A stretch of DNA of 64,000 bases from an uncultured Desulfospira sp. GTDB lineage: Bacteria > Desulfobacterota > Desulfobacteria > Desulfobacterales > Desulfobacteraceae. The notes beneath the pieces are model-generated. The model saw nothing but the letters and a program-made list of their open reading frames with translations, had not been told where the DNA came from and ran no database searches. Each line of letters opens with the position of its first letter. The stretch's first letter is position 1. Positions 6,877 to 37,659 of the stretch are shown one piece after another. The stretch lies in assembly GCA_963663165.1 (NCBI GenBank), contig OY760175.1, forward strand, positions 4,672,001 to 4,736,000. The letters run 5' to 3'. A program made the translations under genes and the position numbers.

Positions 6877-6922
6877 GACGTTAGACTTCAATTATACAGC
6901 AGGCTAGATAGGAGAAACGCAA

Positions 6923-7330: not shown

Positions 7331-7333
7331 GTT

Positions 7334-7534
7334 ATGTTAAAGGCAAGTGAAATCAGGGAAATGGATGAAGGCCAGGTAAAGGAAAAACTGGTCGAGCTCA
7401 AAAAGGAACTGTTCAACCTTCGTTTCCAGAATGATGTCGGGCAGCTTGAAAATACGGCAACGCTTTCCATGGTCAGAAAAGACATCGCAAGACTCTATAC
7501 CATCTCCCGGCAAAAAGATTTTAACATTAGCTAA
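7334..7534 (+). CDS. rpmC: 50S ribosomal protein L29
   Basis: [19 protein letters not shown]. Confidence 0.97.
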
Positions 7535-7546
7535 AGAGTTATCGAT

Positions 7547-7804
7547 ATGGAAAATAAAAAAAATAAAAGAGAGATGATTGGGCTAATTGTATCCGACAAA
7601 ATGGATAAGTCAGTAGTTGTCCGGGTTGAACGGTTTGTACAGCACAAAGTGTATAAAAAATATATCAAACGGTACAAAAAATACCATGCCCATGATGCCA
7701 AGAACGAATGTCGGATTGGTGATGAAGTCAAGATCATTGAAACCCGTCCTTTGAGCAAATTGAAACGGTTCAGGGTTTCTGAGATCACCAAAAAAGCCGT
7801 TTAA
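7547..7804 (+). CDS. rpsQ: 30S ribosomal protein S17
   Basis: [19 protein letters not shown]. Confidence 0.98.
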
Positions 7805-7824
7805 GTAAAGGAGTTACAAAGAAA

Positions 7825-8193
7825 ATGATTCAGAGCGAAACCAGATTGACGGTCGCAGACAACTCCGGAGCAAAGGAACTTTATTGTATAAAGGTTCTGG
7901 GCGGATCCAAAAGAAAATACGCCGGTATCGGTGACATTATTATCACCAGTGTCAAAGAGGCCATCCCGAATTCCAAGGTGAGCAAGGGTGATATTGTACC
8001 GGCGGTGATCGTCAGAACCAAAAAGGAAATTCGCCGGCCGGACGGCTCTTCCATACGGTTTGATGACAATTCGGCAGTGGTATTGACCAAGAACAATGAT
8101 CCTGTCGGAACCCGTATATTCGGCCCGGTGGCAAGGGAGTTAAGGGCAAAAAGATTTATGAAAATCATCTCTTTGGCCCCTGACGTCCTTTAA
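7825..8193 (+). CDS. rplN: 50S ribosomal protein L14
   Basis: [29 protein letters not shown]. Confidence 0.99.
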
Positions 8194-8216
8194 GCTTAAG
8201 GATTGGAGAAAATAAC

Positions 8217-8546
8217 ATGCAGGCTGGAAAAATAAGAATAAAAAAAGATGACAAGGTAAAAGTGCTTACCGGCAAAGATAAAGGCAAAATCGGTAAAGTA
8301 CTCAAGGTGGTGAAAAAGACCAACCGGGCCGTTGTCGAAAACATCAATGTCGTCAAGGTTCATCAGCGGCCCACCCAGGCCAATCCCCAGGGTGGGATTA
8401 TAGACAAAGCCATGCCCATTGAACTGTCCAATTTGATGATCATGTGCAATTCCTGTGTAAAACCGACCCGGATCGGAATAAAACAGCTTGAAGACGGTAA
8501 GCGGGTTAGAATCTGCAAGAAATGCAATGAGCAGATCGACGCCTAG
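8217..8546 (+). CDS. rplX: 50S ribosomal protein L24
   Basis: KOW motif [15 protein letters not shown]; operon position. Confidence 0.98.
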
Positions 8547-8570
8547 GACCCTCACCCCCGGAGAAGAAAA

Positions 8571-9110
8571 ATGACCACGCTAAAAGAAAGATATTTAAAT
8601 GAAGTTGTTCCGGTACTAAAGGAGAGCTTCAACTATACCAACGAATTTCAGGTGCCCAAGTTTGAAAAGATTGTCCTGAATATGGGGCTTGGAGAAGCGG
8701 TCAGGAACCCGAAAATAATCGAATCAGCTGTTCAGGAGCTGACGCTTATCGCTGGACAAAAAGCCGTTGTTACCAGGGCAAAAAAACCCATTGCCAATTT
8801 CAAGCTCAGGGCCGACCTTCCCATTGGGTGCAAGGTGACCCTGCGCCGTGAAAAAATGTATGATTTTTTTGAACGGCTTATCAATATTGCACTTCCCCGT
8901 GTAAGAGACTTCAAGGGCGTATCAGGAAAAGGCTTTGACGGTCGCGGAAATTTTTCCATGGGGATCACAGAGCATATTATTTTCCCTGAAATTGATTATG
9001 ACAAGACCGACAGCATCAAAGGGTTTAATGTTACGGTTGTGACCACAGCCAAAACCGATGAAGAAGGCAAAAAATTCCTGAAAGAAATGGGAATGCCCTT
9101 TAAAAACTAA
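8571..9110 (+). CDS. rplE: 50S ribosomal protein L5
   Basis: [29 protein letters not shown]. Confidence 0.99.
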
Positions 9111-9129
9111 GGATCTTAAGGAGGAAAGC

Positions 9130-9315
9130 TTGGCTAGGACAGCTTTAATCGCAAAGGCCAATAGAAAACCTAAGTTTTCTGTACGTGCGTACAACAGGTG
9201 CCCGTTATGCGGTAGACCAAGAGGATTTATCAGAAAAGCTGGTATTTGCAGAATTTGTTTCAGGACCCTTGCTTCCGAAGGCAAGCTCCCGGGCGTTACC
9301 AAATCAAGCTGGTAG
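9130..9315 (+). CDS. rpsN: 30S ribosomal protein S14, short Zn-binding (type Z) form, TTG start
   Basis: RCPLCGRPR...ICRICFR...LPGVTKSSW, 61 aa. Confidence 0.98.
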
Positions 9316-9369
9316 ACCAGACAAATCCAACAATATTGAATTATCAGCTGAAAGTTAAGGAGACTTCAA

Positions 9370-9768
9370 ATGGCAGTTAGTGATCCAATTGCAGACATGC
9401 TGACCATCATTAGAAATGGCGGGAAGGCGGGGTTTGCCAACGTGGATATCCCCGGATCAAAGATTAAATTGGAAATGGTGCGGGTGCTAAAGGAACAAGG
9501 GTATATCAAGGATTTTAAGTTTCTTGAAAATGAGATTCAGGGAGTGATCCGGGTCTATCTTAAGTATGTGAAAGATGGGCAGCCCACCATATTCGGGATT
9601 AAACGGGTCAGCAAACCATCCTGCAGGGTATACAGCAAATCCAAACAGATTAAGCCGGTATTAAACGGCCTGGGTATTTCCATTGTATCCACCTCAAAAG
9701 GGGTTATGACGGATAAACAGGCTAAAGAAGCGAAGGTCGGCGGTGAAATTCTTTGTAACGTATGGTAA
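9370..9768 (+). CDS. rpsH: 30S ribosomal protein S8
   Basis: DPIADMLTIIRN, GLGISIVSTSKGVMTD. Confidence 0.99.
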   Translation: MAVSDPIADMLTIIRNGGKAGFANVDIPGSKIKLEMVRVLKEQGYIKDFKFLENEIQGVIRVYLKYVKDGQPTIFGIKRVSKPSCRVYSKSKQIKPVLNGLGISIVSTSKGVMTDKQAKEAKVGGEILCNVW

Positions 9769-9782
9769 GACAGGAGTAGAAT

Positions 9783-10325
9783 ATGTCGAGAATAGGAAAA
9801 AAGCCGGTTCAGCTTCCAGATAAGGTCCAGGTTACTTTGGATGCGGATGTCATCAAAGTCAAAGGACCCAAAGGCAATCTCGAACGTAAAGTTCATCCGG
9901 CGGTTAAGATTCAAATAGATGATGGTGAACTAAAGGTGAGTGCAGATTCTTCCAACCAGAAGGATGTTGCGCTACAGGGACTGTTCAGGTCTCTGATCGA
10001 CAATATGGTAACCGGTGTAACCAACGGGTATGAAAAGCAGCTGGTCCTTTCAGGGATTGGCTACCGGGCTGAAACCAAAGGGAAGAATCTCGTACTCAAC
10101 GTGGGGTACTCCAATCCGGTCGACTTTGAACTGCCTGAAGGCATCAGCGCTCAGGTTGAAAACAACACCAAGATTACGCTCAGCGGAATAGACAAAGAGA
10201 TTCTTGGCCAGGCAGCGGCGAATATCAGACGGGTCAGGCCCCCAGAGCCCTACAAGGGAAAGGGCATAATGTATGCCGATGAAAGAATCATCAGAAAAGC
10301 GGGCAAAACAGCCGGTAAAGATTAG
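9783..10325 (+). CDS. rplF: 50S ribosomal protein L6
   Basis: MSRIGKKP, RPPEPYKGKGI. Confidence 0.99.
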   Translation: MSRIGKKPVQLPDKVQVTLDADVIKVKGPKGNLERKVHPAVKIQIDDGELKVSADSSNQKDVALQGLFRSLIDNMVTGVTNGYEKQLVLSGIGYRAETKGKNLVLNVGYSNPVDFELPEGISAQVENNTKITLSGIDKEILGQAAANIRRVRPPEPYKGKGIMYADERIIRKAGKTAGKD

Positions 10326-10343
10326 AGCGGGAGTATAAATATC

Positions 10344-10712
10344 ATGGGAAAGACATCACCAAGGCTTGTATCCAGGCTTAAAAGAAAAAAGAGAATCAGA
10401 AAAAGTATCACCGGCAGTCAGGAACGTCCGAGACTGAGTGTGTTCAGAAGCTCCAAACATATTTATGCCCAGATCGTAGATGATACCCAAGGCCGGACCC
10501 TGGTTTCCGCATCCAGCCTGGACGGGGAATACAAAGACAGCCCCGCAGAGGGAAAAAAACGGGATGTAGCCAAGGCAATTGGGCTGCTTGTCGGGAAGAG
10601 GGCCATTGACAAAGGAATTACAAAAGTGGTTCTGGACAGAAATGGGTTTTTATATCATGGCCGCGTTAAAGCGCTCTCAGACGGTGCCCGTGAAGCCGGT
10701 CTGGATTTCTAA
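10344..10712 (+). CDS. rplR: 50S ribosomal protein L18
   Basis: [25 protein letters not shown]. Confidence 0.99.
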
Positions 10713-10728
10713 ATAAGGAGGAACACCC

Positions 10729-11235
10729 TTGGCAAGACAACAGGCAAGACAACAGATGGAAGACAGTGGGTTAATCGATAAAGTTGTCCGGATCAACCGC
10801 GTGGCAAAAGTAGTTAAAGGCGGCAGGAATTTCAGTTTTTCAGCCCTTGTGGTGGTTGGAGACGGTGAAGGCACCGTGGGGTACGGCCTTGGAAAAGCCA
10901 CTGAGGTTCCCGAAGCCATTCGAAAAGGCATGGAAAAGGCCAAGCGGAACATGGTCAAGGTCGCTATTTTGAACGGCACGGTTCCCTTTGAGGTTGTGGG
11001 GCGCGCCGGGGCCGGACAGGTTCTCCTCAAACCCGCATCCCCCGGTACCGGGCTGATTGCCGGTGGTGGTATCCGTGCAGTCCTTGAAGCAGCGGGCGTT
11101 ACGGATATCCTGACCAAATGCATTGGGACCCACAACACCCAGAACATTGTCAGAGCGACAATGGCAGGTCTTCAATCGCTGTGTACCAAAGAAGAGGTCG
11201 CCAAGCGCAGGGGCTTGCGGCCTGAAGATATTTAA
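10729..11235 (+). CDS. rpsE: 30S ribosomal protein S5
   Basis: [31 protein letters not shown] start behind an AGGAGG ribosome-binding site. Confidence 0.99.
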
Positions 11236-11246
11236 TGAGGTTAACA

Positions 11247-11429
11247 ATGGCAGATACATTGAGAATAACACAGATTAGAAGCACCATTGGACGGCCGGCA
11301 AAACAGGGGCGGATTGTCCGGTCCTTAGGGATCAAGCGGATGCACCATACCGTGGAGCATAAAAAAGATCCGGTTATCCTGGGACAGATTAAAAAGATTT
11401 CACACCTGTTGAAAGTAGAGGAGGTCTAA
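11247..11429 (+). CDS. rpmD: 50S ribosomal protein L30
   Basis: ITQIRSTIG...LGIKR; position between rpsE and rplO. Confidence 0.96.
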   Translation: MADTLRITQIRSTIGRPAKQGRIVRSLGIKRMHHTVEHKKDPVILGQIKKISHLLKVEEV

Positions 11430-11929
11430 TGGTACAGCTTCATGATCTGGCACCTGCTCCTGGCAGCAGAAAGAATAGAAAAAGAGTGGGCAGAGGCCCC
11501 GGGTCCGGGATGGGGAAAACCGCCACCAGGGGAAGCAAAGGCTTAAAGGCTCGGTCAGGCGGCAGCGTCAGGCCTGGATTTGAAGGCGGCCAGATGCCGA
11601 TTTACCGGCGTTTGCCCAAAAGGGGATTCCTCAATATTTTTAAAACCCATAATGTGGTTTTAAATGTTAAAGATCTTGACCGGTTTGAGAATGAGGCATT
11701 AATTGATGTCCAGTCTCTCAGGGATTCCGGGCTGGTAAAGGGAAAATTTGACGGGGTTAAGATTCTGGGAGACGGCGAGACCAGCAAAAAGTTTACATTA
11801 AAGGGATTGCTGGTTTCTAAGGCAGCCAGGACAAAGATTGAAGCCGCCGGCGGAACAATAGTAGAAGACGCCGCAGCGGCTCCGGAAGTCACAGAGGCTT
11901 TGGAAACCCCTGAGAGCCCGGAAGCTTAA
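11429..11929 (+). CDS. rplO: 50S ribosomal protein L15
   Basis: RVGRGPGSG, GFEGGQMPIYRRLPKRGF; acidic C-terminal tail. Confidence 0.99.
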   Translation: MVQLHDLAPAPGSRKNRKRVGRGPGSGMGKTATRGSKGLKARSGGSVRPGFEGGQMPIYRRLPKRGFLNIFKTHNVVLNVKDLDRFENEALIDVQSLRDSGLVKGKFDGVKILGDGETSKKFTLKGLLVSKAARTKIEAAGGTIVEDAAAAPEVTEALETPESPEA

Positions 11930-12002
11930 AACCAAAACGGGGCAGGTCTCAAATCAGACGATCAAAAATTGAAATTACAGGGGATGTAAGGAAATAACCA
12001 AA

Positions 12003-13319
12003 ATGATAGAGAACAGTTACCAGAATTTGTTCAAACTTCCGGAGTTGAAACGGAAGTTGCTCATCACGCTTGCGCTTCTCTTTGTATACCGGATCGGTAT
12101 TCATGTTCCGACGCCGGGGATTAACGGGGCAGCCCTTGCTTCATTTTTCCAGTCTGCGTCAGGGACCTTGTTTTCCATGTTCAACATGTTCTCCGGAGGG
12201 GCATTGGAGCGGCTTTCTATTTTTGCACTGGGGATTATGCCTTACATTTCCGCTTCCATTATTTTGGAGCTCATGACCGTGGTTGTCCCCTACCTTGACC
12301 AGCTGAAAAAGGAAGGGGATGCGGGCCGAAAGAAGAAAACTCAGTATACCCGGTACGGAACGGTAATTTTAAGTATTATTCAGGGTTTTGGCATTGCTGT
12401 TGGGCTTGAGTCCATGTCTTCCCCGGCAGGTGTTCCCATTGTGCCGTATCCCGGGTGGGGTTTCAGACTGATCACCATTATCACCCTGACGGCTGGAACG
12501 GCCTTTATCATGTGGCTGGGTGAGCAGATTACGGAAAGGGGTATCGGGAACGGGATTTCATTGATAATTTTTGCCGGTATCGTGGCCAATATGCCTTCAG
12601 CTGTGGGGAATACCGTCCGGTTGATGAGTACCGGTGAAATGGGGCTTTTTTCCATTCTGATCCTTTTGGTGCTGATGATCGGCGTGGTGGCCTGCATTAT
12701 CTATATGGAAATGGCTCAGCGAAGAATTCCGGTGCATTATGCCAAACGGGTAGTGGGCAGGAAAATGTACGGTGGACAGACATCCCATCTGCCCTTGAAG
12801 ATTAACACGGCCGGTGTTATTCCGCCGATTTTTGCATCTTCCATTATCATGTTCCCCACAACCCTGGCCCAGTTTACCAATCTGCCGGCCATGCAGACCA
12901 TTGCGGCTATGTTCAGCCCGGGGACCGTATGGTACTATCTGCTTTATATTGGGTTTATTATTTTCTTTTGCTTTTTTTATACAGCCGTTCAGTTCAATCC
13001 CGATGATGTCGCGGAAAACATGAAGAAGAACGGCGGGTACATCCCGGGCATCCGGCCGGGAAAACGGACTTCAGAATATATTGACAAAGTATTAACCAGA
13101 ATTACCCTTGGCGGTGCGATTTATGTGTCTGCTGTCTGTGTGCTGCCGACCATGCTCATGGACAAATTTAATGTTCCGTTTTATTTTGGCGGAACCGCCC
13201 TTCTCATTGTTGTGGGGGTGTCCATTGATACTATATCCCAGATAGAATCCCACTTGATCACAGGTAACTATGACGGGTTTCTGGGCCGGGGCGGCTCGAA
13301 AAGGATTAAGGGCAGGTGA
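12003..13319 (+). CDS. secY: Preprotein translocase subunit SecY
   Basis: SIFALGIMPYISASII, GIGNGISLIIFAGI, IPGIRPG, FGGTALLIVVGV. Confidence 0.99.
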   Translation: MIENSYQNLFKLPELKRKLLITLALLFVYRIGIHVPTPGINGAALASFFQSASGTLFSMFNMFSGGALERLSIFALGIMPYISASIILELMTVVVPYLDQLKKEGDAGRKKKTQYTRYGTVILSIIQGFGIAVGLESMSSPAGVPIVPYPGWGFRLITIITLTAGTAFIMWLGEQITERGIGNGISLIIFAGIVANMPSAVGNTVRLMSTGEMGLFSILILLVLMIGVVACIIYMEMAQRRIPVHYAKRVVGRKMYGGQTSHLPLKINTAGVIPPIFASSIIMFPTTLAQFTNLPAMQTIAAMFSPGTVWYYLLYIGFIIFFCFFYTAVQFNPDDVAENMKKNGGYIPGIRPGKRTSEYIDKVLTRITLGGAIYVSAVCVLPTMLMDKFNVPFYFGGTALLIVVGVSIDTISQIESHLITGNYDGFLGRGGSKRIKGR

Positions 13320-13359
13320 TTGGTTGGATACCGGATCGATAAGGAGATAAAGTAAAATT

Positions 13360-13578
13360 ATGGCAAAAGAAGAACCCATCAAAGTGGACGGGAAGGTGCT
13401 GGAAACGTTGCCCAATGCCATGTTCAAAGTTGAACTTGAAAACGGACATGTTCTTTTGGCCCATATTTCCGGAAAAATGAGAATGCATTTTATTAAAATA
13501 TTGCCCGGGGACAAAGTGACTGTTGAAATATCACCCTATGATTTGAGCCGTGGCAGAATTACATATCGTTATAAATAG
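13360..13578 (+). CDS. infA: Translation initiation factor IF-1
   Basis: [27 protein letters not shown]. Confidence 0.99.
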
Positions 13579-13606
13579 AAAAATCTCAAGTTTAGGAGTA
13601 AGATAG

Positions 13607-13720
13607 ATGAAAGTTAGAGCATCTGTTAAAAAAATCTGTAGAGATTGTAAAGTAATAAAGAGACGGGGTGTCATCAGAGTTATTTGCATTAACAAACGCC
13701 ATAAACAGAGGCAGGGATAG
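13607..13720 (+). CDS. rpmJ: 50S ribosomal protein L36 (not in the ORF track, 37 aa)
   Basis: Translated by hand: [37 protein letters not shown], with AGGAG upstream. Confidence 0.98.
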
Positions 13721-13731
13721 GGAGAAAGAAT

Positions 13732-14100
13732 TTGGCACGTATTGCAGGAGTAGATTTACCAAGAGATAAGCATGCATGGATTGCTTTGACCTATATTTAT
13801 GGTATAGGCCGCAGCAGGTCAAAAATGATTCTTGAAAAAACCGGTATTGAGCCTACCACCAAAGCAAACGACTTGACCGAAGAACAGGTGAACGAAATCA
13901 GAAAAGTCATTGATGCCGAGTTTAAGGTTGAAGGTGAGCTCAGGTCTGAAGTATCCATGAATATTAAACGGCTCATGGATCTGGGGTGCTACAGGGGACT
14001 TCGCCACAGGAAAGGGCTCCCATGTCACGGCCAGAGAACCAGTACCAATGCCAGAACCCGGAAAGGCCCCAAACGGGCTGCTGTTAAAAAGAAAAAGTAG
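13732..14100 (+). CDS. rpsM: 30S ribosomal protein S13 (TTG start)
   Basis: [26 protein letters not shown]. Confidence 0.99.
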
Positions 14101-14123
14101 GTTAAATTAAAAGGTGTCAATTT

Positions 14124-14519
14124 ATGGCAAAAAAGTCTAAAAAAACTGTAGCAAAGAAACGGGTTAAAAAGAATATCTCTACGGGCATCGTTCATATTCA
14201 ATCCACGTTTAACAATACCATTGTCACCATAGCTGATGAAAATGGAAACACTATTTCATGGTCCAGTGCCGGGATGCAGGGGTTTAAAGGCTCCAGAAAA
14301 AGCACTCCCTTTGCAGCCAAATTGGTTGCCGAAGATGCCGGTGCAAAGGCCATGGAACACGGGATGAAAAATGTCGGTGTTTATGTTAAAGGCCCGGGAC
14401 CCGGTCGGGAATCCGCTTTACGGGCGTTGCACGCCCTTGGATTCAATATCTCCATGATCAAGGATGTAACCCCGGTTCCTCACAATGGATGCCGCCCGCC
14501 CAAAAGAAGAAGAGTTTAA
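14124..14519 (+). CDS. rpsK: 30S ribosomal protein S11
   Basis: [37 protein letters not shown]. Confidence 0.99.
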
Positions 14520-14548: not shown

Positions 14549-15175
14549 TTGTCACGTTACAGAGGATCAGTCTGCCGTCAGTGCAGACGGGAAAATATGA
14601 AGCTTTTTCTGAAAGGCGATCGGTGCTTTTCGGATAAATGCAGTTTTGACAGAAGGGGATATCCCCCCGGAGAACACGGCCAGAAAAGAGGCAAGCAGTC
14701 TGATTATGGGATGCAGCTCCGGGAAAAACAGAAAGTACGCCGGATTTACGGTATTTCCGAAAAACAGTTCCGGATTTTTTTCAGAGAGGCGGATCGCCGC
14801 AAAGGGATTACAGGTACCAATCTGTTAAGCCTTCTTGAAACCCGGCTGGATAATACGGTCTTCCGGATGGGGTTCGTGAACTCCAGAAACCAGGGAAGAC
14901 ATTTCGTCCGGCACAACCATTTCGTTGTTAATGGCAAAAAAGTTAACATCCCTTCTTATCAGGTCAAAAAAGGTGATGTAATTGAACTTCGCGAAAAAAG
15001 CAGAAATATTCAAGCCATTTCCGACTCGTTAGATGCCATTGTCAGAAGAGGCATTCCCCAGTGGCTTGAAATTGAAAAAGATAAATTCAAAGGCCAGGTT
15101 GTCGGTATTCCAGTAAGAGAAGATATTACCCTGCCCATTCAGGAACAATTGATCGTAGAGCTGTATTCAAAATAG
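14549..15175 (+). CDS. rpsD: 30S ribosomal protein S4 (TTG start, Cys-containing form)
   Basis: CRQCRRE, QLREKQK, LETRLDN, EQLIVELYSK. Confidence 0.99.
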   Translation: MSRYRGSVCRQCRRENMKLFLKGDRCFSDKCSFDRRGYPPGEHGQKRGKQSDYGMQLREKQKVRRIYGISEKQFRIFFREADRRKGITGTNLLSLLETRLDNTVFRMGFVNSRNQGRHFVRHNHFVVNGKKVNIPSYQVKKGDVIELREKSRNIQAISDSLDAIVRRGIPQWLEIEKDKFKGQVVGIPVREDITLPIQEQLIVELYSK

Positions 15176-15227
15176 GGAAAGCCGGTCAATCCTGTGGTTT
15201 TTCCACATATTCATTCAGGAGATTTAA

Positions 15228-16253
15228 ATGTCATCTGAAAAATTAGCATATTTAAACTGGCGAGAAATGATCAAGCCGGAGAAGCTCGATGTTACCACGA
15301 CATCCACTTACGGAGAATTCGTGTGTGAACCTCTGGAAAGGGGATATGGCATCACCATTGGGAACTCTCTGAGGCGGATCATTCTTTCATCCATATACGG
15401 CGCTGCCATTGTATCAGTAAAATTTGAAAACGCTCTTCATGAATACAGTGTCATCCCTGATGTACGGGAAGACGTTTCCGAGATCATTCTTAACCTGAAA
15501 GAGCTTAAACTCAAGGTTGACAATGCCGATGATAAAATCCTTACCCTGAACATAAAAGGGGAAACCAAGGTTACCGGGGCCGATATTGTCAGTGCTGACG
15601 GAAAGGTTGAGATCCTTAACCCTGAACAGCACATTGCCACCTTGTCCAAAAACGGTGAACTCAATATGGTCATGGTTGTCAAAACCGGCAAAGGGTATGC
15701 CCTTGCATCAGCCAATAAAGACGATGATGCCCCTATCGGGACGATTCCTATTGATTCAGTTTTTTCCCCCATTAAACGGGTAAAATATGTCGTTGGAACT
15801 TCTCGAATCGGCCAGAAAACCGATTATGACAAGCTCACCCTGGAAATTTGGACGGATGGCAGTGTCAGGCCTGAGGATGCCGTGGCCTACGGCGCTAAAA
15901 TTCTAAAAGAACAAATGAATCCCTTTATCAATTTTGATGAAGAGATGGAGCCCGATCATCTTGAAGAGGGCGGCGAGGAATCCGAAAAAGGATTTAATGA
16001 AAATATCTATCGCTCAGTTGATGAGCTTGAACTTTCCGTCAGGAGTTCAAATTGCCTGAAAAACGCCAGAATTCATACCATCTACCAGCTGGTTCAAAAG
16101 ACAGACAGTGAAATGCTGAAAACAAAGAATTTCGGCAGAAAATCCTTGAACGAGATCAAGGAAGTATTATCTTCCATGGATCTGTCACTGGGCATGGATC
16201 TTGAGGGGTTTGAACCACCGGAAGAAGAGACGACCATTCAGGAAGGAGAATAA
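15228..16253 (+). CDS. rpoA: RNA polymerase alpha subunit
   Basis: [40 protein letters not shown]. Confidence 0.99.
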
Positions 16254-27640: not shown

Positions 27641-29053
27641 ATGAGAATTGCATCATCCGATATAATGATGTCGTCCAGTCATACCCTGGAGCAGACGGAT
27701 ATCACTTCAAGTCAGATATCCAGCCTTAAACAGGTATCCAGATCCGGGGATTCAAACCAGACAGCGGATACCGGTGCCCCCCTTGCCCTGGTGGACCGGG
27801 TCAGTATTTCCTTTTGGGAAGAAAGTCAGGCCTTGTCCGGTTATGCGTCAACCTTACGGGCCGCATCCACGGTCAGTACCGGCGACACAGAAGACAGCAC
27901 CACAGCGGATTACCGCGAAACAGTGGAAAAGCTGGTGGGGGCGGTAATTGACAAAAAGGTGGTGGCCGGTGCGGTTGCGCAGACCGGGGCCAGCCTGTCC
28001 AAAGACCTGGCCGCCGGCGATTTAAGTTCCCTGACCGAAAACACGGAAGAATCAGCCCTAGGGGTCACCCAGCAGTGGCTGATCAGCCAGGCCCAGGTTG
28101 AATATGAAAAGGAGCAGGCCAATTTTTCAGCCGCCGGAACCGTGACCACCCAGGACGGGAGGAACATTGATTTTTCCCTTGAGTTTTCCATGGAAAGAAC
28201 CCTTTTATCTGAAACCGAACAGGAAACCCTGATTCAGGTAAGCCGGGAAATCCTGGTGGATCCGCTGGTTATCAGCCTGGACAAAGGGGTCCCCGCGCTA
28301 TCGGATGTGACCTTTGATTTTGACCTGGACAGTGACGGCGAAATGGACACGGTTCATTTCGCCTCATCCGGGTCCGGATTTCTCAGCCTGGACAAAAATA
28401 ATGACGGCATCATCAACAACGGGTCCGAGTTGTTTGGGACAAAAACCGGGGACGGGTTCGGGGAACTTTCAGCCTATGATGACGACGGCAATGGCTGGAT
28501 TGATGAAAGCGACGCCGTGTTTGAACAACTTCAGGTCTGGACCCGGGACGACACCGGCACTGACCACCTGATTTCCCTGAAAGATGCCGGGATCGGTGCC
28601 ATTTTTCTGGGCAGTACGGCCACAGAACTGAGCCTCACCGGGGAGGATAACCACCTGGCCGGCCAGGTAAGGGCTTCTGGCCTGTTTTTGTATGAAACCG
28701 GGGAGGTGGGCTCAATCCAGCAGATTGACCTTGCCAAACAGCAGGAAACGGTTCAGGATAACACCCTGTCCGCCAGTGGAACCGCGTTTATAACTGAGGG
28801 CTTTTTTCAGAATTCAACGGTGCTTGAAACCGGCACCCTGATCCAGGGCTTTGAATGGATTGCCGACAATCCGGCCGGCCTGCCGGAACAGCCGGAAAAT
28901 CCCCTTGAACAGCTTAAGGAGAGAGTCAAAGAACTCAAGCAGCAGTTGAAAAGTTTGCTCAGGCCCACGGGAAGCCTCTCATCATCTTTGTATGGAAAAA
29001 ACCGGGTATCCGCCTTCCGGCTCTACCAGATGACCCGGCCGGATCTCCTTTGA
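27641..29053 (+). CDS. Conserved hypothetical protein with DxDxDG Ca-binding-like motifs
   Basis: 470-aa ORF with GAGG RBS; FDLDSDG, LDKNNDGIINNGSELFG, YDDDGNGWIDESD. Confidence 0.8.
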   Translation: MRIASSDIMMSSSHTLEQTDITSSQISSLKQVSRSGDSNQTADTGAPLALVDRVSISFWEESQALSGYASTLRAASTVSTGDTEDSTTADYRETVEKLVGAVIDKKVVAGAVAQTGASLSKDLAAGDLSSLTENTEESALGVTQQWLISQAQVEYEKEQANFSAAGTVTTQDGRNIDFSLEFSMERTLLSETEQETLIQVSREILVDPLVISLDKGVPALSDVTFDFDLDSDGEMDTVHFASSGSGFLSLDKNNDGIINNGSELFGTKTGDGFGELSAYDDDGNGWIDESDAVFEQLQVWTRDDTGTDHLISLKDAGIGAIFLGSTATELSLTGEDNHLAGQVRASGLFLYETGEVGSIQQIDLAKQQETVQDNTLSASGTAFITEGFFQNSTVLETGTLIQGFEWIADNPAGLPEQPENPLEQLKERVKELKQQLKSLLRPTGSLSSSLYGKNRVSAFRLYQMTRPDLL

Positions 29054-29790: not shown

Positions 29791-30831
29791 TTAATCAAGC
29801 TTTTCTTCGGTGATGGTCTGGTTCCTGCCATGTTCCTTTGCAAAATAAAGCCCTTTATCGGCCCTCTCAACAAGGGTCTCTACCGTCTCTCCAAGCCGGT
29901 ACTGGGCAATTCCTATGGAAATGGTGATGGAGCCCAGGTTTTTTTTGGTGTCCCGGGCGATCCATTTCATTTTCTCCAGTTTTTTTCGAATCTGTTCACA
30001 CAACACCCATGCCCCTTTAAGCTGCGTATCGGGAAGAACAATGAGAAATTCTTCGCCACCGTACCGTGCCGCCGTATCCTTTCCTTTGATGTGGTCTTTT
30101 AAAACCGTGGCCAGCATTTTCAGCACATTGTCTCCGATCAGGTGTCCGTGGGTGTCGTTGACCTTTTTAAAATGGTCGATATCAATAATGGCCACGCACA
30201 TGGATGAGTTATTGCTCTGGACATGCTCAAAGACCCTGGCCATTATTTCTTCAAGCCCCCGCCGGTTCAACAGCCCGGTCAGCACATCTGTGACAGCTGA
30301 TTGTTTGATCCCCTGCATTTCGGAGCGAAGGGTCTGGACTTCCTTTTTTGTGGCTTCAAGCTGGGTTTTAAGATGCCGGGTGGATTCAATGACTTCCCGG
30401 GTCTCTTCCAGGATTTTGGCGGCAATCTCCGTAATGCTTTCCATGGTTGTGGCCTGGCCTAACCTCTGGGCATAGACCTGAAAAGAGCTGTCATGGGCAT
30501 CAAGCTCTCCGCCGGAGTCTCCGAGCTGTTTGGCAATTTCAGACAGGATTTCATGGAATTTTCTCAGGGTGGTCTCTGTGCTTAGAAGCTGCTCCTCGGC
30601 GATGTATTTCCGGAAAAGGTCAATCACCTGGTCGTTATCGAGACCCTTTTCCATGCGCTTTTGCATCTCAAGGGAGAGTTTTTTGTTCCTGCCGGCCGCG
30701 TATTCATACCACACCGCATAGGCAATGGGATTGAAGGGCAGTTTTTGATTTGAGATATGCTGGAGGACCAACCGGAGAATATTGCCAGACTGTTCCACCG
30801 ATTCATTGTAAAAATCTTTTAACATAATCAA
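29791..30831 (-). CDS. Cytoplasmic diguanylate cyclase
   Basis: DVLTGLLNRR, DIDHFKKVNDTHGH, intact RYGGEEF; coiled-coil N-terminal half. Confidence 0.93.
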   Translation of the reverse strand: MIMLKDFYNESVEQSGNILRLVLQHISNQKLPFNPIAYAVWYEYAAGRNKKLSLEMQKRMEKGLDNDQVIDLFRKYIAEEQLLSTETTLRKFHEILSEIAKQLGDSGGELDAHDSSFQVYAQRLGQATTMESITEIAAKILEETREVIESTRHLKTQLEATKKEVQTLRSEMQGIKQSAVTDVLTGLLNRRGLEEIMARVFEHVQSNNSSMCVAIIDIDHFKKVNDTHGHLIGDNVLKMLATVLKDHIKGKDTAARYGGEEFLIVLPDTQLKGAWVLCEQIRKKLEKMKWIARDTKKNLGSITISIGIAQYRLGETVETLVERADKGLYFAKEHGRNQTITEEKLD

Positions 30832-31181
30832 ACTCTGTACAAAAAAATCTTTTGTTGAAAGTATAAAAACGGCCAGGTTTTTTATTATTTCCCCATAGAT
30901 AAACGGGTTATCCGGTGCTCATCGGCCTGAAATTCGATCCTTATACCCTGCCATGAATGGCCTTGGAATGTCAATATGAATTCCAAGTCTTCCAAAGGGC
31001 AATCGCATGTAAAAAAGCAAGCCATTCCGGAATGAAAGATAAGGATAACGCCAATATTCCTTATTTTCAGAATCCCCTGTTTAAACAGGCGTACCGCTCG
31101 ATTTCGATAACGATTTCGATTTCGACTGTCCAGGGCGGAATATACATTGGTTATCACAAAGAATTTTAATTCTAATTACAT

Positions 31182-31215
31182 CGGGCCTGCCCGGATCAGC
31201 GTCCGGGCAGGCCCG
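31182..31215 (-). terminator. Strong hairpin, probable terminator of the cohesin/dockerin operon
   Basis: 14-bp stem CGGGCCTGCCCGGA / TCCGGGCAGGCCCG just past the 31242 stop; no clean U tract. Confidence 0.6.
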
Positions 31216-31241
31216 TGGTTGTCTATAAAACGACTTGCTGT

Positions 31242-34200
31242 TTAATTGGTGAAAAGGAGGATCACTTTCCGGGCATCCCGTACCGTGATGGTGCCGTCGC
31301 CGTCCAGGTCACAGGCCGGGCATGCGGAGGCATCCTGTCTTAAGTGGCTTCTGGCCACAGCAACGTCGGCCCGGTCCACATCACCGTCCCCGTCCAGATC
31401 GCCTTGAAGGGGCACGTCGATTTCAAATACGGCCACGGTGCCGCCCACTTCGCAGGCCATGAGCACCAGAGGTTTTCCTGTGGGGCTGTCTGCCGCCGGG
31501 ATGAAATCCAGACCCTCGGGGGCGGAGTCCAGAAAGGAGCCGTCAAAGGGCCGGGTGTTGATGTAGTTGACAAAAAAGGCGTTTGCAGGGTCTGTGATGT
31601 CGTAGGTCATCATGCCGCCGATACGTTCCAGGCCCACAAAGGCAAAGATTCTGCCGTTGATTTCACCCACTTCAATGCCTTCGGGTTCCGGGCCTTTTTT
31701 GGGGCTGCGCTTGTCCATTTTCTTGGTTTTGTAATGGTCGTTGTCAATATTAAAATAATCGGGCAGACGCTGGGCCGTAATCACCTCAAAGTCGTTGCCG
31801 CTGTCATAGACCTGGACCATGGTGTCTGCATCCCAGATGGAAAAGGAGCGTGCCCCGAAAAGATACACTTCGTCGGTATTGCCCATATCCCTGGCGCAAT
31901 TGAAAAAATAGACCTCATCCTGGGTTCCGCTGGGCACCTGGACATCGGTGGTGTAGAAAAAACCGGCTGCCTCGTCGCCTGTGAGGTACGGGACTATGGA
32001 CTGGATCAGTGCGTTGTTTGGATAAAATTCTGCAAAATCACCTTCGTTGGCGGTCAGGATATAGGTTTTGCCGTCAACACTGAAGCTTGCCACGGCATCA
32101 GGCATGTACATGCCGAATGCGGGAATATTTTCAAGGGTGATGTTCGAGTCTTCAATTACGTCCAGAGAATTTTCCGGCTGTCTTAAATCCTTGAAACCAA
32201 GGCTCTTGACTGAAACCAGCGTCTTTGCCGCCACGTCAATAATAGCAATGGCGTTGTTTTCCTGGAGAGACACATAGGCTTTTCCGCAGTCTTCGGACAG
32301 GGTGATGAACTCGGGTTCAAAGTCCGTAACCGCATCGGTTTTATCACGCGGTACCATAAAATAGCTGTCTTCCTGAGCTTCAACTCCTCGGACATGTACG
32401 TCATCATCAATCTTTGATACATCGTCAAAATAGACATGGGTGACGGTGTCATCGTCCGTGCCGGATGTGCCCATGGTGTCCACAATGGTTACGGAACCTT
32501 TGGGGTATAGGGAGATGTCGGACTGGGCGGCCCCTCTGGGTTCAGCCTCGTCAGCCGTGAGGATGTACCGTCCGTTTTGAGAGGCAACAACCATGTCCGG
32601 ACCGAATCCTGCCTCATAGTGGTGGACATAGTTGCCGTCATAATCAAGAACCAGAACAATACCTTTTTTGCTGATGTAATCGTCTTCCTGTACTGACAAA
32701 TAAATCCGGTCGTTAACGGTGCTGACGGACACGCAGCTCAGGTCGCCGTATGTAAAATCTGAAACGTTAGTTGCAAGAAGGCTTTCAATATTGATGGTTG
32801 TTTTACTGGTAAGGTTTAAATAGCCGCTTGACGGATACCCGGTAGCCTGCAGGGTGACAATATCCAGGGTGGCGGGGCTTGTGGCACCGTTGACGATATA
32901 GAATTTGCCGTTCTCCTTATTAAACTCAACCATCTCAGCCACGCCGCCGTCCGTATCCACGGTGCCGGCGCTGTATCCGGCGATTTTTCTGACGGTAATC
33001 ACATCCTCGGTATCCGGTCCCGGAGACTGGGTGGTGATGCCGCCTGAATAGACAGCCTCGCCTGATCCCACCGAATTCACCGCAGCAAGGGCAAAGTAAT
33101 AGGTGGTTCCGGAGTCAAGACCGTTGGCATAGCAATAGTCCGTCTTGCCGGAAAGAATCCGGGGCTCGGATGACAACAGGTTTGTTTTCGACTCACTCTG
33201 GTAAAAATAGTATTCATCGGCATCACCCGCACAGGTCCAGGTGAAGAGTACGGAAGATGTACCCGCCTCAACCGGCTGGGCTTCTGCTGTAAAGTCTTCA
33301 GGGGGTGTGGGGAACCCGCCGATCTCGATTTCTAGGATCTCACTGGTATTGCCCTGAAAATCCACGCCTGCAATGTAGACGTTGAGGGCATCCGGCTCAA
33401 GATCCGTCAGGGTAATGGTATTTCCTGCCACGCCATGTCGGCACTGGTGCCTGCCATGACGGTCTCTATGAACGGTGTTTCATCTCCTGCCTCATACACC
33501 ACGTAATAGAAGGTTCCTCCTTAATTTGCGGTAAACGTGACAGTGGCTTCGGTATAGCTGGTCCGGCTCCAGGAAGCATCTGAAAGCACTGGCGGTGTAA
33601 TATCATCGTATTCATGAATTTCCATAACCAGAATCGTGCTGACCATGTCGTCGGCATCCTTGGCGACAATGTAGACGTCCTTGGCACCGCTTGTGAGATC
33701 GGTAACGGTGAAGGCCACTTCGCCTGCCGTGCAGGCCGTGCCATCGACCGTGGTATCCAGTTCCGGCTGGTCAGCTCCGTCTTCCACCACGGCATAGTAG
33801 TACTCACACACCTCATTGGTAGTGAAGGTCACGACAGCTTGTTCCAGGCTGGTGCGTTCTGATGTTCCTGCGGTCAGAATGGGCGGCATCTCATCAATGC
33901 CCACAGCTTCAAAGTCGATGCCGGCTGTTGTGGCGAACTCCTCGGCTACCGAGCCGGGAACGCCGCGGATTAAAAGTGCGGTATTATGATTGTTGAACGC
34001 ATAACTGTTAATACATGTCACACTGTAGGGAATCGTGATTTCGGTCAGTTTTTCACAATTTTGAAATGCCCGGTTGTTGATCGTGGTCAGGCTGTTGGGA
34101 AGGTTGACCTCTCTTAGGTTGGTGCAATCGGAAAATGTATATTCATCAAGCAGAGTTACCCCGTATGGGATGGTAATGGATGTTAAGCCCGAACAATATT

Positions 34201-34741
34201 GGAATGCACTTTCTCCCATAACTTCAAGACCGTCCGGGAGGGTGATTCCCGTCAGGCCGATGCATTGGTAGAATGCATCCTCTCCGAGGGTTGTCACACC
34301 GGAGGAGATTTCGTAGATGCCGCTTCGGCCTTGGGGAAAAGAGACCAAGGTTGTCCCCGCTTTGTCGAACAATACGCCGTCCTGACTCATGAAAATCGTA
34401 TTTTCGCTGTCAACAATGATTTCCGTCAAGGACGTGCAAAAAGTAAATAAACGGTTAGTAAAATCTGTTATAGAGGCCGGTATTGTAATGGATGTTACGG
34501 TTGACCCGCTTGAAGAAAAAATAAATTTGTAATTGAGTTTTGTCACGGGCAGCCCGTCGATTTCGGCGGGGATTTCTACGGCACCACCTTCACCCTGGTA
34601 TTTTGTGAGGTAAATGTATGTACCGTAATTGTAGTAAGTCCAATCGCCGTCTTCCGTGGTATCAGCCAGGGCTGTCCCCGGAACAAGGCCCAAAAGTGCA
34701 AAAAGCACCAACATCATTGGTATCAATTTCAATTTTTTCAT
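31242..34741 (-). pseudogene. Interrupted gene for a ~1166-aa secreted protein: signal peptide, BspA-type LRR, two Ig-like repeats, FN3, choice-of-anchor I domain, C-terminal dockerin-like domain
   Basis: ORFs 33521-34741 and 31242-33431 join across an in-frame TAA (33521-33523) and a frameshift near 33430-33450; LRR pattern AFxxCxxLTxITIP; EPEFITLS...QENNAIA and KGPEPEG...GLERIGG; GDLDGDGDVDRAD...DLDGDGTITVRD. Confidence 0.85.
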
Positions 34742-34861
34742 CAGTTCCTCTTTTTTAATTTTATTTTTCTGTCATGTGCAGTTCTGCTTTCCCATGGCAC
34801 TGCCCCTGGAAAGCCAGCCTGATGCTTCAATAGTTTGCATCGGTTAAGCCGGGCAGCCTGA

Positions 34862-35401
34862 CTAGCAGCTCCTGCGGCCCCGTCTTAAACCCGCCAGCCC
34901 CGCAAGGCCCGCGCCCAGCAGCAAGAGGGTGCCGGGAACCGGAACGGCGCTGATGTGGGTGCCGTTAACGGTAAAGGCGATGGCATTGCCGTCAACATCG
35001 GACAGGATAATGTTGGAAAGACTGATGCCGGAAAGGGCAGACTCATCCCCTGAAAAGGAGATGGTGGCCAGGGTGAAAGAGGCGGATTGAGTGCTGAAAT
35101 CCGCTGAATCGGTCAGGTAGGAAACAACCGCCAGATAAGCGGTTCCGGTTGCATATTCCTTATCACTCCTGTCTTCAGCATCATAAGAGTCAAAGCTGCC
35201 GAGTTCTTCAGTCAGGCTGTACTCATCAAAGGTGAGCAGAGTGCCATCATAGTTCACATCAAATTCAAACCCTGCCAGGTCCAGGTTTTCCAACCCGGAA
35301 ATGGTAATGTTAACTTCATAGGCGGTAGCAGATGTTGCCCCCATCACCACCAGACCAAAACAAAACATGATTGCTGCAATCAACTTCTTTGATAAAATCA
35401 T
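34862..35401 (-). CDS. Secreted cohesin-like protein with PEP-CTERM/VPLPA-CTERM-type sorting signal
   Basis: Signal peptide ending ATA; cohesin-like LAGFEFDVNYDGTLL.F, LATISF, ISLSNIILSDVDG; tail VPVPG + hydrophobic helix + RRGRR. Confidence 0.85.
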   Translation of the reverse strand: MILSKKLIAAIMFCFGLVVMGATSATAYEVNITISGLENLDLAGFEFDVNYDGTLLTFDEYSLTEELGSFDSYDAEDRSDKEYATGTAYLAVVSYLTDSADFSTQSASFTLATISFSGDESALSGISLSNIILSDVDGNAIAFTVNGTHISAVPVPGTLLLLGAGLAGLAGLRRGRRSC

Positions 35402-35795
35402 GTGTCTTCTCCTTTTTTACGCTGTATTAAAATTATGCCCCGGACCTTTTGCCGGGGGCAGAAACCTAATAACACAGGTAAAAAAAATGATTGCCGCTGG
35501 ATTTTCAAAACCTGGCCCGAGATTTCCACTTTTAACATTTTAATCAAATTTTAACAAAAATACGGGGCTTTCCCGGGGCTCAAATTTCCGGGAAAACCCG
35601 CTAAGGACTGGGATGGCGTGGAAAATGCCGGGTCATTGGCCAAGGCAGGAAAGGATTCATTTGAAACGCTGACTTATCACATATTCAAAATCCCAGGTTT
35701 GACCCGAATATTTCAAGTTTTACTCTTGAATTTGAGTAAGGCGTGAACTAATATTTATAAAAGTGAAACATAAAGAAATAATTTGGAGATGAAAA

Positions 35796-36062
35796 ATGGA
35801 AAAAATGAAGTCAATTACTGTTCACGGTATTGAACCACCCCTGGCTGAGCTGATCAAATCCAGGGCGTTTTCAGAAGGATTGAGCATAAACAAGACCGTA
35901 AAAAAAATTCTTGAAGAAGCGCTGGGTATAAAACCTGCCAATTCAGATCGCCATCGGGATGATTTTAAAGCCTTTTGCGGTGTATGGACCAGGGCCGATC
36001 AAAAGGAATTTGAAAGCAACACTCAGTCCCTCAATGCCGTGGATCAAGAGGATTGGCAATGA
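35796..36062 (+). CDS. Ribbon-helix-helix antitoxin (FitA/VapB-like)
   Basis: SITVHGI...IKSRA..EGLSINKTVKKILEEALG; ATGA overlap with the PIN gene; TTGAAT-17-TAATAT promoter at 35726-35754. Confidence 0.8.
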   Translation: MEKMKSITVHGIEPPLAELIKSRAFSEGLSINKTVKKILEEALGIKPANSDRHRDDFKAFCGVWTRADQKEFESNTQSLNAVDQEDWQ

Positions 36063-36451
36063 AAAACGTCCTGCTTGATACCAATGCATATGTAAGCCTT
36101 TTAAGTGGGGATGAAGCGGTGTTAAATGTCCTTGCCAATGCATCCTGCTGCTATATGTCGATTTTTGTTATTGGTGAACTTTATGCCGGTTTTGCCGGTG
36201 GCCGAAAAGAGAGGCAAAACCGGGAATTGTTAGGCCGCTTTCTAAACCGATCTACCGTTAAAATTCTTAATGCCACCATGGAAACTTCAGATCTGTTTGG
36301 ACACATTAAAAACAGCTTGAAAAAAAAGGGCCGGCCCATCCCCATTAATGATGTCTGGATTGCCGCCCATACTATGGAAACAGGCTCTACCATCATCACT
36401 TACGATCGCCATTTCATGGAAGTCGACGGCCTTCGCGTTTTTCAACAATAG
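36059..36451 (+). CDS. vapC: PIN-domain toxin, VapC family
   Basis: LLDTN, IGELYAG, KGRPIPINDVWIAA, TYDRHF. Confidence 0.92.
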   Translation: MKNVLLDTNAYVSLLSGDEAVLNVLANASCCYMSIFVIGELYAGFAGGRKERQNRELLGRFLNRSTVKILNATMETSDLFGHIKNSLKKKGRPIPINDVWIAAHTMETGSTIITYDRHFMEVDGLRVFQQ

Positions 36452-36524
36452 CCATTTGGGGCAGGGTAAGGATATTCTCCAAAATAGTTGAATCTTGGAT
36501 TTTTATATTACATGTGATGACGGT

Positions 36525-36552
36525 GTAGGGGCGATTCATGAATCGCCCCTAC
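36525..36552. repeat. REP-like perfect 28-bp palindrome
   Basis: GTAGGGGCGATTCA / TGAATCGCCCCTAC, starts with GTAG. Confidence 0.85.
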
Positions 36553-36609
36553 GGCCGACCCAACAGCACCGCCTCATCCGGTTTCCCGTCTCCTTTCTAT
36601 ACATTATTA

Positions 36610-37571
36610 TTATCCCTTCCGGCCCATACGCATCAGGTATTGTTTGGGGGAATATCCGGTATGGGCCCGGAACGCTTTGCCAAAATGGCTCAGGTTGGTG
36701 TAGCCCACAGCGCAGGCGGCCTGGGTGGCTGTCATTTCGTTCTGGTCAAGAAGTCTTTGGGCCGTTTCCATTCGTTTGTGTTTCAGATAATCAAAGGGGG
36801 TTACCCCGTATACCGCTTTAAAGCTTCGGTACAGGCCGCTTGGACTCATTCCGGCCTGGCCGGCCAGTTCCGGAATGCTGGGCGGGGCCTCCAGATGCTG
36901 TGCCAGCAGCTGCCCGGCGTGCCTGGCCTTGTCAATATTCTCAGCTTTAATGGCAAGCCGTTTGCCAGGGCGGGGCTTCCCGGCATTCAGCTGGTCCACT
37001 TTATAGACCATCAACTCCAGAATTTTGCTTTCCAGGAAAAATTCACGCACCGTTCCTTCATAAGGGCAGTTGATGATTTGCATGAGTACGCTGCGCATGT
37101 CCGGTGTCAGGCTATCCAGAAAAAGCTTGGAACGGGACCGGTGTTGAAGGGGGACCAGCCGGTTTTCCCAGGTTTCTCCCATCAGGGCCTGAAATTCCCG
37201 GGGTGCCATTATGAGGATAATCCGGCTCGTCCGTTGCGGGCCGTATAGGTCACGGATGGTTTGTTCCTGAAAATGGTAGGTGGCGCTCAGGTTTGGGCCA
37301 ACCATATCAGCTTTTTTTTCCCGTTGATGAAAAGGTCGGCCGTGCCGTGCAGAAAAAAGGCAAACCCAAAGGCCGGGGGGAAGTCTGTGTAATCGAAGTG
37401 GGTTGGCGCATTAAGGGTGAAATCCGACACTTTCACATGTACACCTGAGCGAAGGCACATAAATTTGATGGTTCCCCGGCCGATACAGCCCGGAAGGTTG
37501 ATCTGACTCTCGGCCCCGGGCCGGACCGCCGGGTAGGCAATTTTCTGGGCTGCATTCAGTTTCTTAACCAT
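36610..37571 (-). pseudogene. AraC-family (PchR/YbtA-like) regulator split by a frameshift in an A8 tract
   Basis: ORFs 37287-37616 and 36610-37305 join if the A8 at 37312-37319 is A9; FLESKILEL, FKAVYGVTP, VGYTNLSHFGKAF. Confidence 0.85.
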
Positions 37572-37659
37572 CTCTGCCTGCTTCGAATAGTTGAAAAGCA
37601 CATTGCTTGAAAACAACCTTGCATTCTATCCCAAGCTATTAACCCATAAAAATTAAAGC

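Follow-up and report, generated by a model that had tools for sequence, protein, structure and literature searches.

How might a diderm bacterium hold its secreted proteins at the envelope, and could a cohesin-dockerin pair do the holding? The question is raised by a stretch of 64,000 nucleotides (nt), hereafter the window, from the genome of an uncultured Desulfospira sp. (assembly GCA_963663165.1, contig OY760175.1, positions 4,672,001–4,736,000), which carries three consecutive minus-strand open reading frames (ORFs) at 34862–35401 (179 amino acids, aa), 33521–34741 (406 aa) and 31242–33431 (729 aa, GTG start). An earlier note, written from the letters alone, had taken the first and the last of these for two co-oriented adjacent genes of a two-part anchor, in which a cohesin with a PEP-CTERM-type tail captures dockerin-tagged cargo; the common strand stands, the adjacency does not, the 406-aa ORF between the two having been overlooked. 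We found that one dockerin-ending gene, cut by a nonsense codon and a frameshift, accounts for both the 406-aa and the 729-aa ORF. Comparison of sequences and of predicted structures makes it probable, in our view, that single-cohesin PEP-CTERM proteins such as the 179-aa product are processed by an exosortase of the XrtD type, retained in the envelope, and bind the C-terminal dockerins of secreted proteins. A cohesin-dockerin anchoring pair would then have been moved onto the exosortase system of diderms, an arrangement that is apparently undescribed and of which the window holds a degraded copy. The features of the locus are these:

34862–35401 (−): 179-aa cohesin-PEP-CTERM gene (the "socket"), identified as an ORF, by Pfam and NCBIfam, by an AlphaFold2 (AF2) model with Foldseek, and by paralogs in the genome
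35321–35401 (−): predicted Sec signal peptide, aa 1–27 (...GATSATA/YEV), read from the sequence, with an N-terminal helix at aa 2–20 in the AF2 model
34952–35320 (−): predicted cohesin-fold domain, aa 28–150, with a predicted local distance difference test score (pLDDT) of 88–96 over aa 31–140, by Foldseek and the family profile
34865–34948 (−): PEP-CTERM-type sorting tail (VPVPG, hydrophobic helix, RRGRR), by PF07589 and TIGR02595
33521–34741 (−): proximal cargo fragment with signal peptide, BspA-type leucine-rich repeats (LRR) and two immunoglobulin (Ig)-like repeats, by LRR_5 (125.8 bits), continuous with the next ORF in an ortholog
33521–33523 (−): premature TAA stop (GAA in the ortholog), from the DNA alignment to the ortholog's locus L027, unchanged in contigs from public runs
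33432–33433 (−): frameshifting 1-nt deletion, CATGG-CGTGG against CATGGCCATGG, from a tblastn frame change and a blastn gap, unchanged in the run contigs
31242–33431 (−): distal cargo fragment, a 729-aa ORF from GTG with fibronectin type III (fn3)-like, choice-of-anchor I and dockerin parts, by ORF, Pfam and NCBIfam
31419–32939 (−): choice-of-anchor I domain, aa 165–671 of the 729-aa ORF, by NF038117 and PF22494
31245–31403 (−): dockerin module, aa 677–729 of the 729-aa ORF, with two Ca-loop/helix repeats, by PF00404, a profile search of the PDB, and AF2 with Foldseek

Is the 179-aa product a cohesin? All the motifs quoted for it earlier are present, and its AF2 model, for which 19 sequences were aligned, is all-beta, with a mean pLDDT of 81 and a core above 90. 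DSSP counts eight strands of at least 3 residues in this predicted structure; the cohesin fold is a nine-stranded beta-sandwich (jelly-roll). Searched against the PDB with Foldseek, the model gave 39 matches at E≤1e-3, and those among the matches listed are all cohesins. The best is 6kge_A (E 4e-6), and the matches span type I and type II cellulosomal cohesins, OlpA (3ul4_A, rank 27), OlpC (4dh2_C, rank 31), cohesin-like modules of Clostridium perfringens (2jh2, 2vo8) and the non-cellulosomal Archaeoglobus fulgidus cohesin (2xdh), all at only 12–19% sequence identity to the 179-aa protein. The fold on which the earlier proposal hinged is thus the one predicted.

Sequence profiles point the same way. 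The sole PDB match by sequence profile for the family was the ScaC cohesin 5lxv_A (E 5e-4). Among 1.84 billion cluster representatives, the family profile (alignment A1) matched 10,730 at E≤1e-3, 2,784 at E≤1e-10 and 111 at E≤1e-30, and the top matches are mostly ~190 aa long and aligned full length from signal peptide to tail. Pfam (E≤0.01) recognised Cohesin in 55 of 80 short top matches (37 with PEP-CTERM, 18 without); another 17 had PEP-CTERM only and 8 had neither. Ten of the 11 long matches scanned with Pfam are multi-cohesin proteins (E 1e-33 to 1e-55). Judging from such matches, the architecture is abundant in sequence databases. Against the assignment, the 179-aa product itself reaches only 19.8 bits (E 1e-3) on the Pfam Cohesin model (PF00963), under a gathering score of 24.1 that is an operational threshold and not a structural definition; a paralog at genome 5634930–5635625 clears it with 29.9 bits. 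Cohesin was the one hidden Markov model (HMM) match of the four proposed that fell short, those to PEP-CTERM, Dockerin_1 and choice-of-anchor I all lying over their cut-offs. Because of the modelled fold and the family-level sequence relationship, we place the 179-aa protein in the cohesin superfamily despite the Pfam miss.

The C-terminus of the same product reads VPVPG, hydrophobic helix, RRGRRSC. It scores 22.8 bits on PF07589 PEP-CTERM (cut-off 20.7), with VPVPG instead of PEP as the tail motif, and 21.3 bits on TIGR02595 PEP_CTERM of NCBIfam (cut-off 16), which bears out the proposed tail. Does the genome encode a machinery to sort it? The genome, a 6.74-Mb single contig, has three exosortase-family genes: the VPLPA-CTERM-specific XrtD (601.3 bits, cut-off 400), a second one matching TIGR02602 (196.6 bits, cut-off 105.6), and a third that is weak and XrtH-like. 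PEP-CTERM matches number 64 genome-wide, and a simple pattern finds 83 ORFs with a PEP-CTERM-like tail, VPVP occurring in 56 and VPEP in 7. The secretin GspD of type II secretion is also present (507 bits, cut-off 351), as is dsrA (603 bits, cut-off 393), which points to a sulfate- or sulfite-reducing type. An exosortase and a sulfate reducer had both been anticipated from the window.

The C-terminal module of the 729-aa ORF contains the quoted GDLDGDGDVDRAD...CPACDLDGDGTITVRD and has two canonical 12-residue Ca loops, DLDGDGDVDRAD and DLDGDGTITVRD, each followed by a helix. It scores 27.1 bits on Dockerin_1 (PF00404, cut-off 22.9), and 13.5 and 11.8 bits on the EF-hand models of Pfam, under their cut-offs. 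A profile of 12 such modules retrieved solved dockerins first from the PDB (2y3n_B, E 6.5e-10), with calmodulin-like proteins far weaker. In an AF2 model of 66 aa (pLDDT 86), helices are predicted at 24–32 and 54–62; Foldseek ranks 1–29 among the matches listed are all dockerins, the best again being 2y3n_B (TM-score 0.72, root-mean-square deviation (rmsd) 1.9 Å, 33% identity, E 6e-3), and calmodulin-type and EF-hand proteins superpose at TM-scores of 0.24–0.29 with an rmsd of ~10 Å. No Foldseek match of this model reached E≤1e-3, which is expected because the domain is small (~55 residues). Pfam, the PDB profile and Foldseek rule out a plain EF-hand, and the module is a dockerin, as had been read from its letters.

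Do the two modules go together within this genome? The genome has 37 Dockerin_1 matches, and those over the cut-off reduce to 19 loci, one per ORF. A PEP-CTERM match lies within 5 kb of 10 of these 19; randomised positions gave 1.8 expected and a maximum of 7 in 2,000 trials. Five of the 19 form a distinct dockerin subtype A (...DxDGDGxITVRDARK...), scoring 59–98 bits against an HMM of the subtype that four of them, not the fifth, served to build; the other 14 score at most 35 bits. The window cohesin has four paralogs, making five subtype-A cohesins in all, and a subtype-A cohesin was found within 6 kb of four of the five subtype-A dockerins and of none of the 14 others. Intact cohesin-cargo copies stand at 1302745–1306719 and 5961996–5967774. 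An intact protein with Metallophos, choice-of-anchor I and dockerin domains (2751648–2754779) is of subtype A and has no cohesin neighbour.

Other dockerins of the genome have other neighbours. A weakly related second pair of cohesin-like proteins (3628671 and 5284077; E 2e-3 and 1.5e-4 with a core HMM of the cohesin) follows directly after a second dockerin subtype. Small PEP-CTERM proteins after further dockerin genes (807170, 3552752, 6103508, 6110947 and others) gave E>0.01 with the core HMM and are not recognisable as cohesins by sequence, and one at 720521 reached E 0.014 only. At 806–808 kb, 3552–3556 kb and 6103–6115 kb (loci L024, L026 and L025), dockerin-tagged subtilases, a Kelch propeller and Ig-rich proteins are encoded, each dockerin gene being followed by one for a small (~190–220 aa) PEP-CTERM protein; these may be further socket families.

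Is the pairing kept in other DNA? A neighbourhood survey with a narrower alignment (A2), which covers the closer cohesin subfamily, gave six loci on genome contigs: one each in a Desulfospira metagenome-assembled genome (MAG), Desulfosarcina variabilis, a deltaproteobacterial MAG and a Methylococcaceae MAG, and two in gammaproteobacterial MAGs. In five of the six, a same-strand gene ending in the same dockerin subtype directly abuts the cohesin-PEP-CTERM gene; the contig of the sixth stops 0.9 kb past the cohesin gene. Among ten metagenome loci, some of which are near-duplicates of one another, nine have a dockerin-subtype neighbour (subtype HMM, independent E-values of 2e-33 to 7e-15), and the tenth is a 1.7-kb contig. 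Taken together, 14 of these 16 loci show same-strand adjacency. All 12 modules of the dockerin alignment share G14, D15, D23, D26, D45, D49, G50 and D56. The co-occurrence of the two gene types, for which a survey had been suggested, is strong both in this genome and in others.

Many dockerins of this subtype end in a short Cys-rich tail such as CTCxxCxCP or CTRxRCxxE (L017:3999–4214, L020:6561–6776, L028, L030, L032 and L042–L047). The window's dockerin has none and carries CPAC instead between its two Ca loops.

What mechanism would join these parts? We infer that the cohesin and its cargo are both exported by Sec and that XrtD processes the VPVPG tail, the cohesin being kept at the cell envelope. 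The cargo would cross the outer membrane, possibly by type II secretion, and the cohesin would dock its C-terminal dockerin, probably in a Ca-dependent manner. The window cohesin, if functional, would serve other subtype-A dockerin proteins, of which the genome has four more.

What would such sockets hold? In this genome and its closest relatives, subtype-A cargo consists mostly of phosphoesterases (Metallophos, the purple acid phosphatase N-terminal domain, 5'-nucleotidase, Exo_endo_phos and PhoD), often fused to a choice-of-anchor I domain; more distant pairs have VWA7-like or cadherin/Ig-rich cargo. Pfam found no glycoside hydrolase (GH) or carbohydrate-binding module (CBM) in the window cargo or in the subtype-A cargo of the genome, and a single CBM96 match in a cargo protein of D. 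variabilis; the cargo had rightly been called non-cellulolytic. A cellulosome is ruled out at this locus, which has no multi-cohesin scaffoldin and no GH or CBM in its cargo. Because close relatives pair the cohesin subfamily mainly with dockerin-tagged phosphoesterases, the system most likely serves, on this sequence comparison, to hold phosphate-releasing enzymes, along with adhesin-like proteins, close to the cell.

Alternatively, the cohesin-PEP-CTERM and dockerin proteins could be adhesion or matrix proteins for aggregation or biofilm formation, cross-linking the matrix or partner cells, with no part in the display of enzymes. The cargo of the window is indeed adhesin-like (BspA-type LRR, Ig-like repeats, fn3, propeller), Pfam recognising no catalytic domain among its LRR, Ig-like, fn3 and choice-of-anchor I parts; the cadherin/Ig-rich and VWA7-like cargo of the distant pairs fits as well, and a diguanylate cyclase gene lies directly downstream (29791–30831). 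In syntrophic sulfate reducers, Murali et al. 2023 (PMC10553843) count cohesin/dockerin proteins among the putative adhesins, PEP-CTERM and exosortases going unmentioned in the passages concerned. However, the closest subfamily carries mostly phosphoesterases and not adhesins, and we regard this alternative as unlikely. It would still need cohesin-dockerin binding, and so differs from the anchoring of enzymes in purpose, not in mechanism.

A more radical alternative does without binding. The dockerin-like module would be a Ca-dependent stabilising tail or one that binds carbohydrate or matrix, and the small PEP-CTERM protein would merely be a co-regulated export. The numbers in this genome leave some room for it, with ~19 dockerin loci for only five clear cohesins of the subfamily, and several dockerin genes followed by small PEP-CTERM proteins that do not read as cohesins. 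Nevertheless, the cohesin subfamily and the dockerin subtype adjoin on one strand in nearly all the loci from other DNA, both modules have the predicted folds of solved interacting pairs, and the subtypes match within a single genome. Because such matching is hard to explain otherwise, we favour a specific interaction and consider its absence decidedly improbable.

If sockets bind dockerins, does the window encode a working pair? The frames of the 406-aa and 729-aa ORFs differ, and the gap between the two is bridged by a repeat unit. The syntenic locus L027 of a Desulfospira MAG (OY761554.1) holds a 1,034-aa ortholog (L027:5859–8963) with 84% identity to the proximal part of the window cargo and 90% to the distal part. 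By tblastn this ortholog first follows a single frame of the window, with no break at the stop codon, and then another frame; blastn against L027 shows the nonsense lesion to be a G to T substitution and the other lesion to be one base missing at ~33432/33433. The intact gene would have encoded ~1,160 aa (coordinates 34741–31242). Its choice-of-anchor I domain scores 395.5 bits on NF038117 (cut-off 300; model positions 1–458 of 458) and 258.5 bits on PF22494, and its Pfam fn3 match is weak.

That the breaks are assembly or sequencing errors in a gene intact in the organism is very hard to credit: both lesions fall within 90 bp, and in the related MAG the ortholog, too, is split at another place, possibly through indel errors of long reads, but one lesion is a substitution and not an indel, and contigs from three public runs of two studies (depths 157, 221 and 6.3; two of the runs, X1 and X2, may be the source sample of the genome itself) equal the window over 33300–33700 with 0 differences and 0 gaps. 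Sequencing error was rejected on these identical contigs, and we take the lesions as real because the contigs carry the window sequence without a single difference. The cargo gene adjoining the window's cohesin is a pseudogene. As encoded, its LRR part would be exported with no dockerin on it and, because the gene is broken, its dockerin part is left without an export signal. The 729-aa ORF is not the complete large secreted protein it had been taken for, because it begins at GTG and itself lacks a signal peptide; it is a distal gene fragment. The capture of its dockerin, which the earlier note had proposed for this locus, is not supported for the gene as encoded. The observation in that note is partly confirmed and its interpretation partly supported.

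Several other points weigh against an exosortase-anchored cohesin that binds dockerins. Within the genome, two of the five subtype-A cohesins and one of the five subtype-A dockerins have no partner nearby. On the six genome contigs, Pfam called a dockerin (E≤0.01) in only three loci, the other two resting on the subtype alignment. The distribution is patchy: among 60 other genomes of the order, sampled at one per family, only nine had cohesin-core matches, and the sole further genome from the family to which the window belongs had none. A core-only HMM confirmed seven of the nine, with a dockerin in the same protein or locus in five of these seven; it did not confirm the candidate cohesin-PEP-CTERM ORFs at two loci of the sample (L033 and L034). 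Binding is argued from gene neighbourhood and subtype matching. To our knowledge, it has not been established in general where exosortase substrates finally reside, and for that reason surface display is something we infer.

The cassette itself may be out of use. Beside the cohesin gene, a regulator of the AraC family (36610–37616, −) is split into two overlapping ORFs of 109 aa and 231 aa, the latter with HTH_18, and its 317-aa ortholog in the Desulfospira MAG aligns to it in two frames, making it the second frameshifted gene in the cassette. Because the cargo gene is a pseudogene and this regulator is frameshifted, the cassette may be decaying and idle in this strain, which also counts against a working anchor here.

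How does an exosortase-anchored cohesin compare with known systems? Ruminococcus flavefaciens ScaE is a sortase/LPXTG-anchored single-cohesin protein. OlpA and OlpC of Clostridium thermocellum (3ul4, 4dh2), anchored by S-layer homology (SLH) domains, likewise have one cohesin followed by a C-terminal envelope anchor for single dockerin proteins. In contrast to these Gram-positive proteins, the tail here is of the PEP-CTERM exosortase type, in a diderm, and not SLH or LPXTG; the cargo is not carbohydrate-active, and there is no multi-cohesin scaffoldin at the locus. With one cohesin per protein, the arrangement would play a part like that of a cellulosome's anchoring end.

A second likeness is to cohesin and dockerin modules that have no part in cellulose degradation, reportedly treated by Peer et al. 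in 2009 (FEMS Microbiol Lett); examples are A. fulgidus 2xdh and C. perfringens NagH/NagJ (2ozn, 2jh2), and 2xdh, 2jh2 and 2ozn_B are among our Foldseek matches. As far as we searched, no PEP-CTERM anchor or two-gene phosphoesterase cassette is described for them.

With PEP-CTERM/exosortase protein sorting, said to have been set out by Haft et al. in J Bacteriol 2012;194:36, the system (XrtD/VPLPA-CTERM) shares the signal peptide, the Pro-rich motif, the transmembrane helix, the Arg cluster, many proteins per genome and a cognate exosortase. Known PEP-CTERM families are defined mostly by their tail and the role of the passenger is obscure, whereas here the passenger is a docking module with a putative ligand next door.

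In ~8.4 million full texts, a collection without Peer et al. 2009 and without InterPro's tables of domain architectures, we found no description of cohesin, dockerin and PEP-CTERM together, nor the term "cohesin domain" together with PEP-CTERM. For archaea of the ANME (anaerobic methanotrophic) groups, Timmers et al. 2017 (PMC5244752) treat dockerin and exosortase in separate sections and do not link them. These searches agree with the earlier remark that no characterised example was known, common as the architecture is among database sequences.

What part might the choice-of-anchor I domain play? The family, an MSP130-like propeller, owes its name to C-terminal anchors that are interchangeable; in the present case a dockerin takes the anchor's place, and it would be a non-covalent tag for a separate anchor protein and not a sorting signal of its own. 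Two phosphatase catalytic domains that are unrelated to each other, Metallophos and PhoD, have the propeller fused at their C-terminal side (L020:3648–6779, L028:10538–13546, L042:8669–12067 and L045:559–3984). Because the fusion partners are unrelated phosphatase domains, their sequences offer a hint that the propeller works with phosphate-ester hydrolysis. In MSP130 proteins, the passages of PMC11878542 on this domain place it within a seven-bladed barrel with predicted Ca sites.

Beyond this genome, we put forward a broader idea tentatively, at slightly less than even confidence. Exosortase-sorted mono-cohesin sockets would be a general plug-in in diderms of several phyla, by which dockerin-tagged secreted proteins are held at the envelope, and in Desulfobacterales the closest subfamily would form a "phosphatasome" for phosphorus scavenging, whose surface-bound phosphoesterases would be of the PhoD, purple-acid, calcineurin-like and nuclease types. 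If the plug-in exists, dockerin-fused reporters could show directly where at least one class of PEP-CTERM proteins goes, and to what purpose. Two old questions meet at this point, the role of non-cellulosomal cohesin-dockerin pairs and the destination and purpose of exosortase (PEP-CTERM) substrates, and a cohesin with a PEP-CTERM tail whose putative ligand is encoded next door offers a simple experimental handle. The cargo of the closest subfamily suggests phosphatases kept at the surface of anaerobic sediment bacteria, which would matter for phosphorus cycling.

The surroundings of the cassette differ in part from those in the relative. A scan of 30800–35900 for promoters and terminators gave counts not above shuffled sequence (7 vs 6.1 and 6 vs 5.6, respectively). 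Between the AraC and cohesin genes, a small ORF and, after it, one with a PIN domain (PF01850, 56 bits) occupy 35796–36451 (+); by its sequence the pair looks like a VapBC-type toxin-antitoxin system. The stretch at ~35616–36613 has no match in the 20.5-kb syntenic locus L027. That locus, in the stretches 5201–14262 and 14921–16245, carries two tandem cohesin-cargo cassettes and further dockerin-coding fragments downstream; its second cargo gene is split into 1,007 and 174 aa. The single cassette of the window looks chimeric by comparison, the cohesin and the first ~200 nt of the cargo resembling cassette 2 of L027 and the body of the cargo cassette 1.

On the other side, the diguanylate cyclase gene downstream of the cargo (−; GGDEF, TIGR00254, 164 bits) is syntenic in the relative and may link the cassette to biofilm regulation. 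Further along, a 470-aa ORF at 27641–29053 (+) has no match in Pfam or NCBIfam and 90% DNA identity in the relative; it contains several Asp-rich motifs that resemble Ca loops, namely DLDSDGEMD, DKNNDGIIN and DDDGNGWIDESD.

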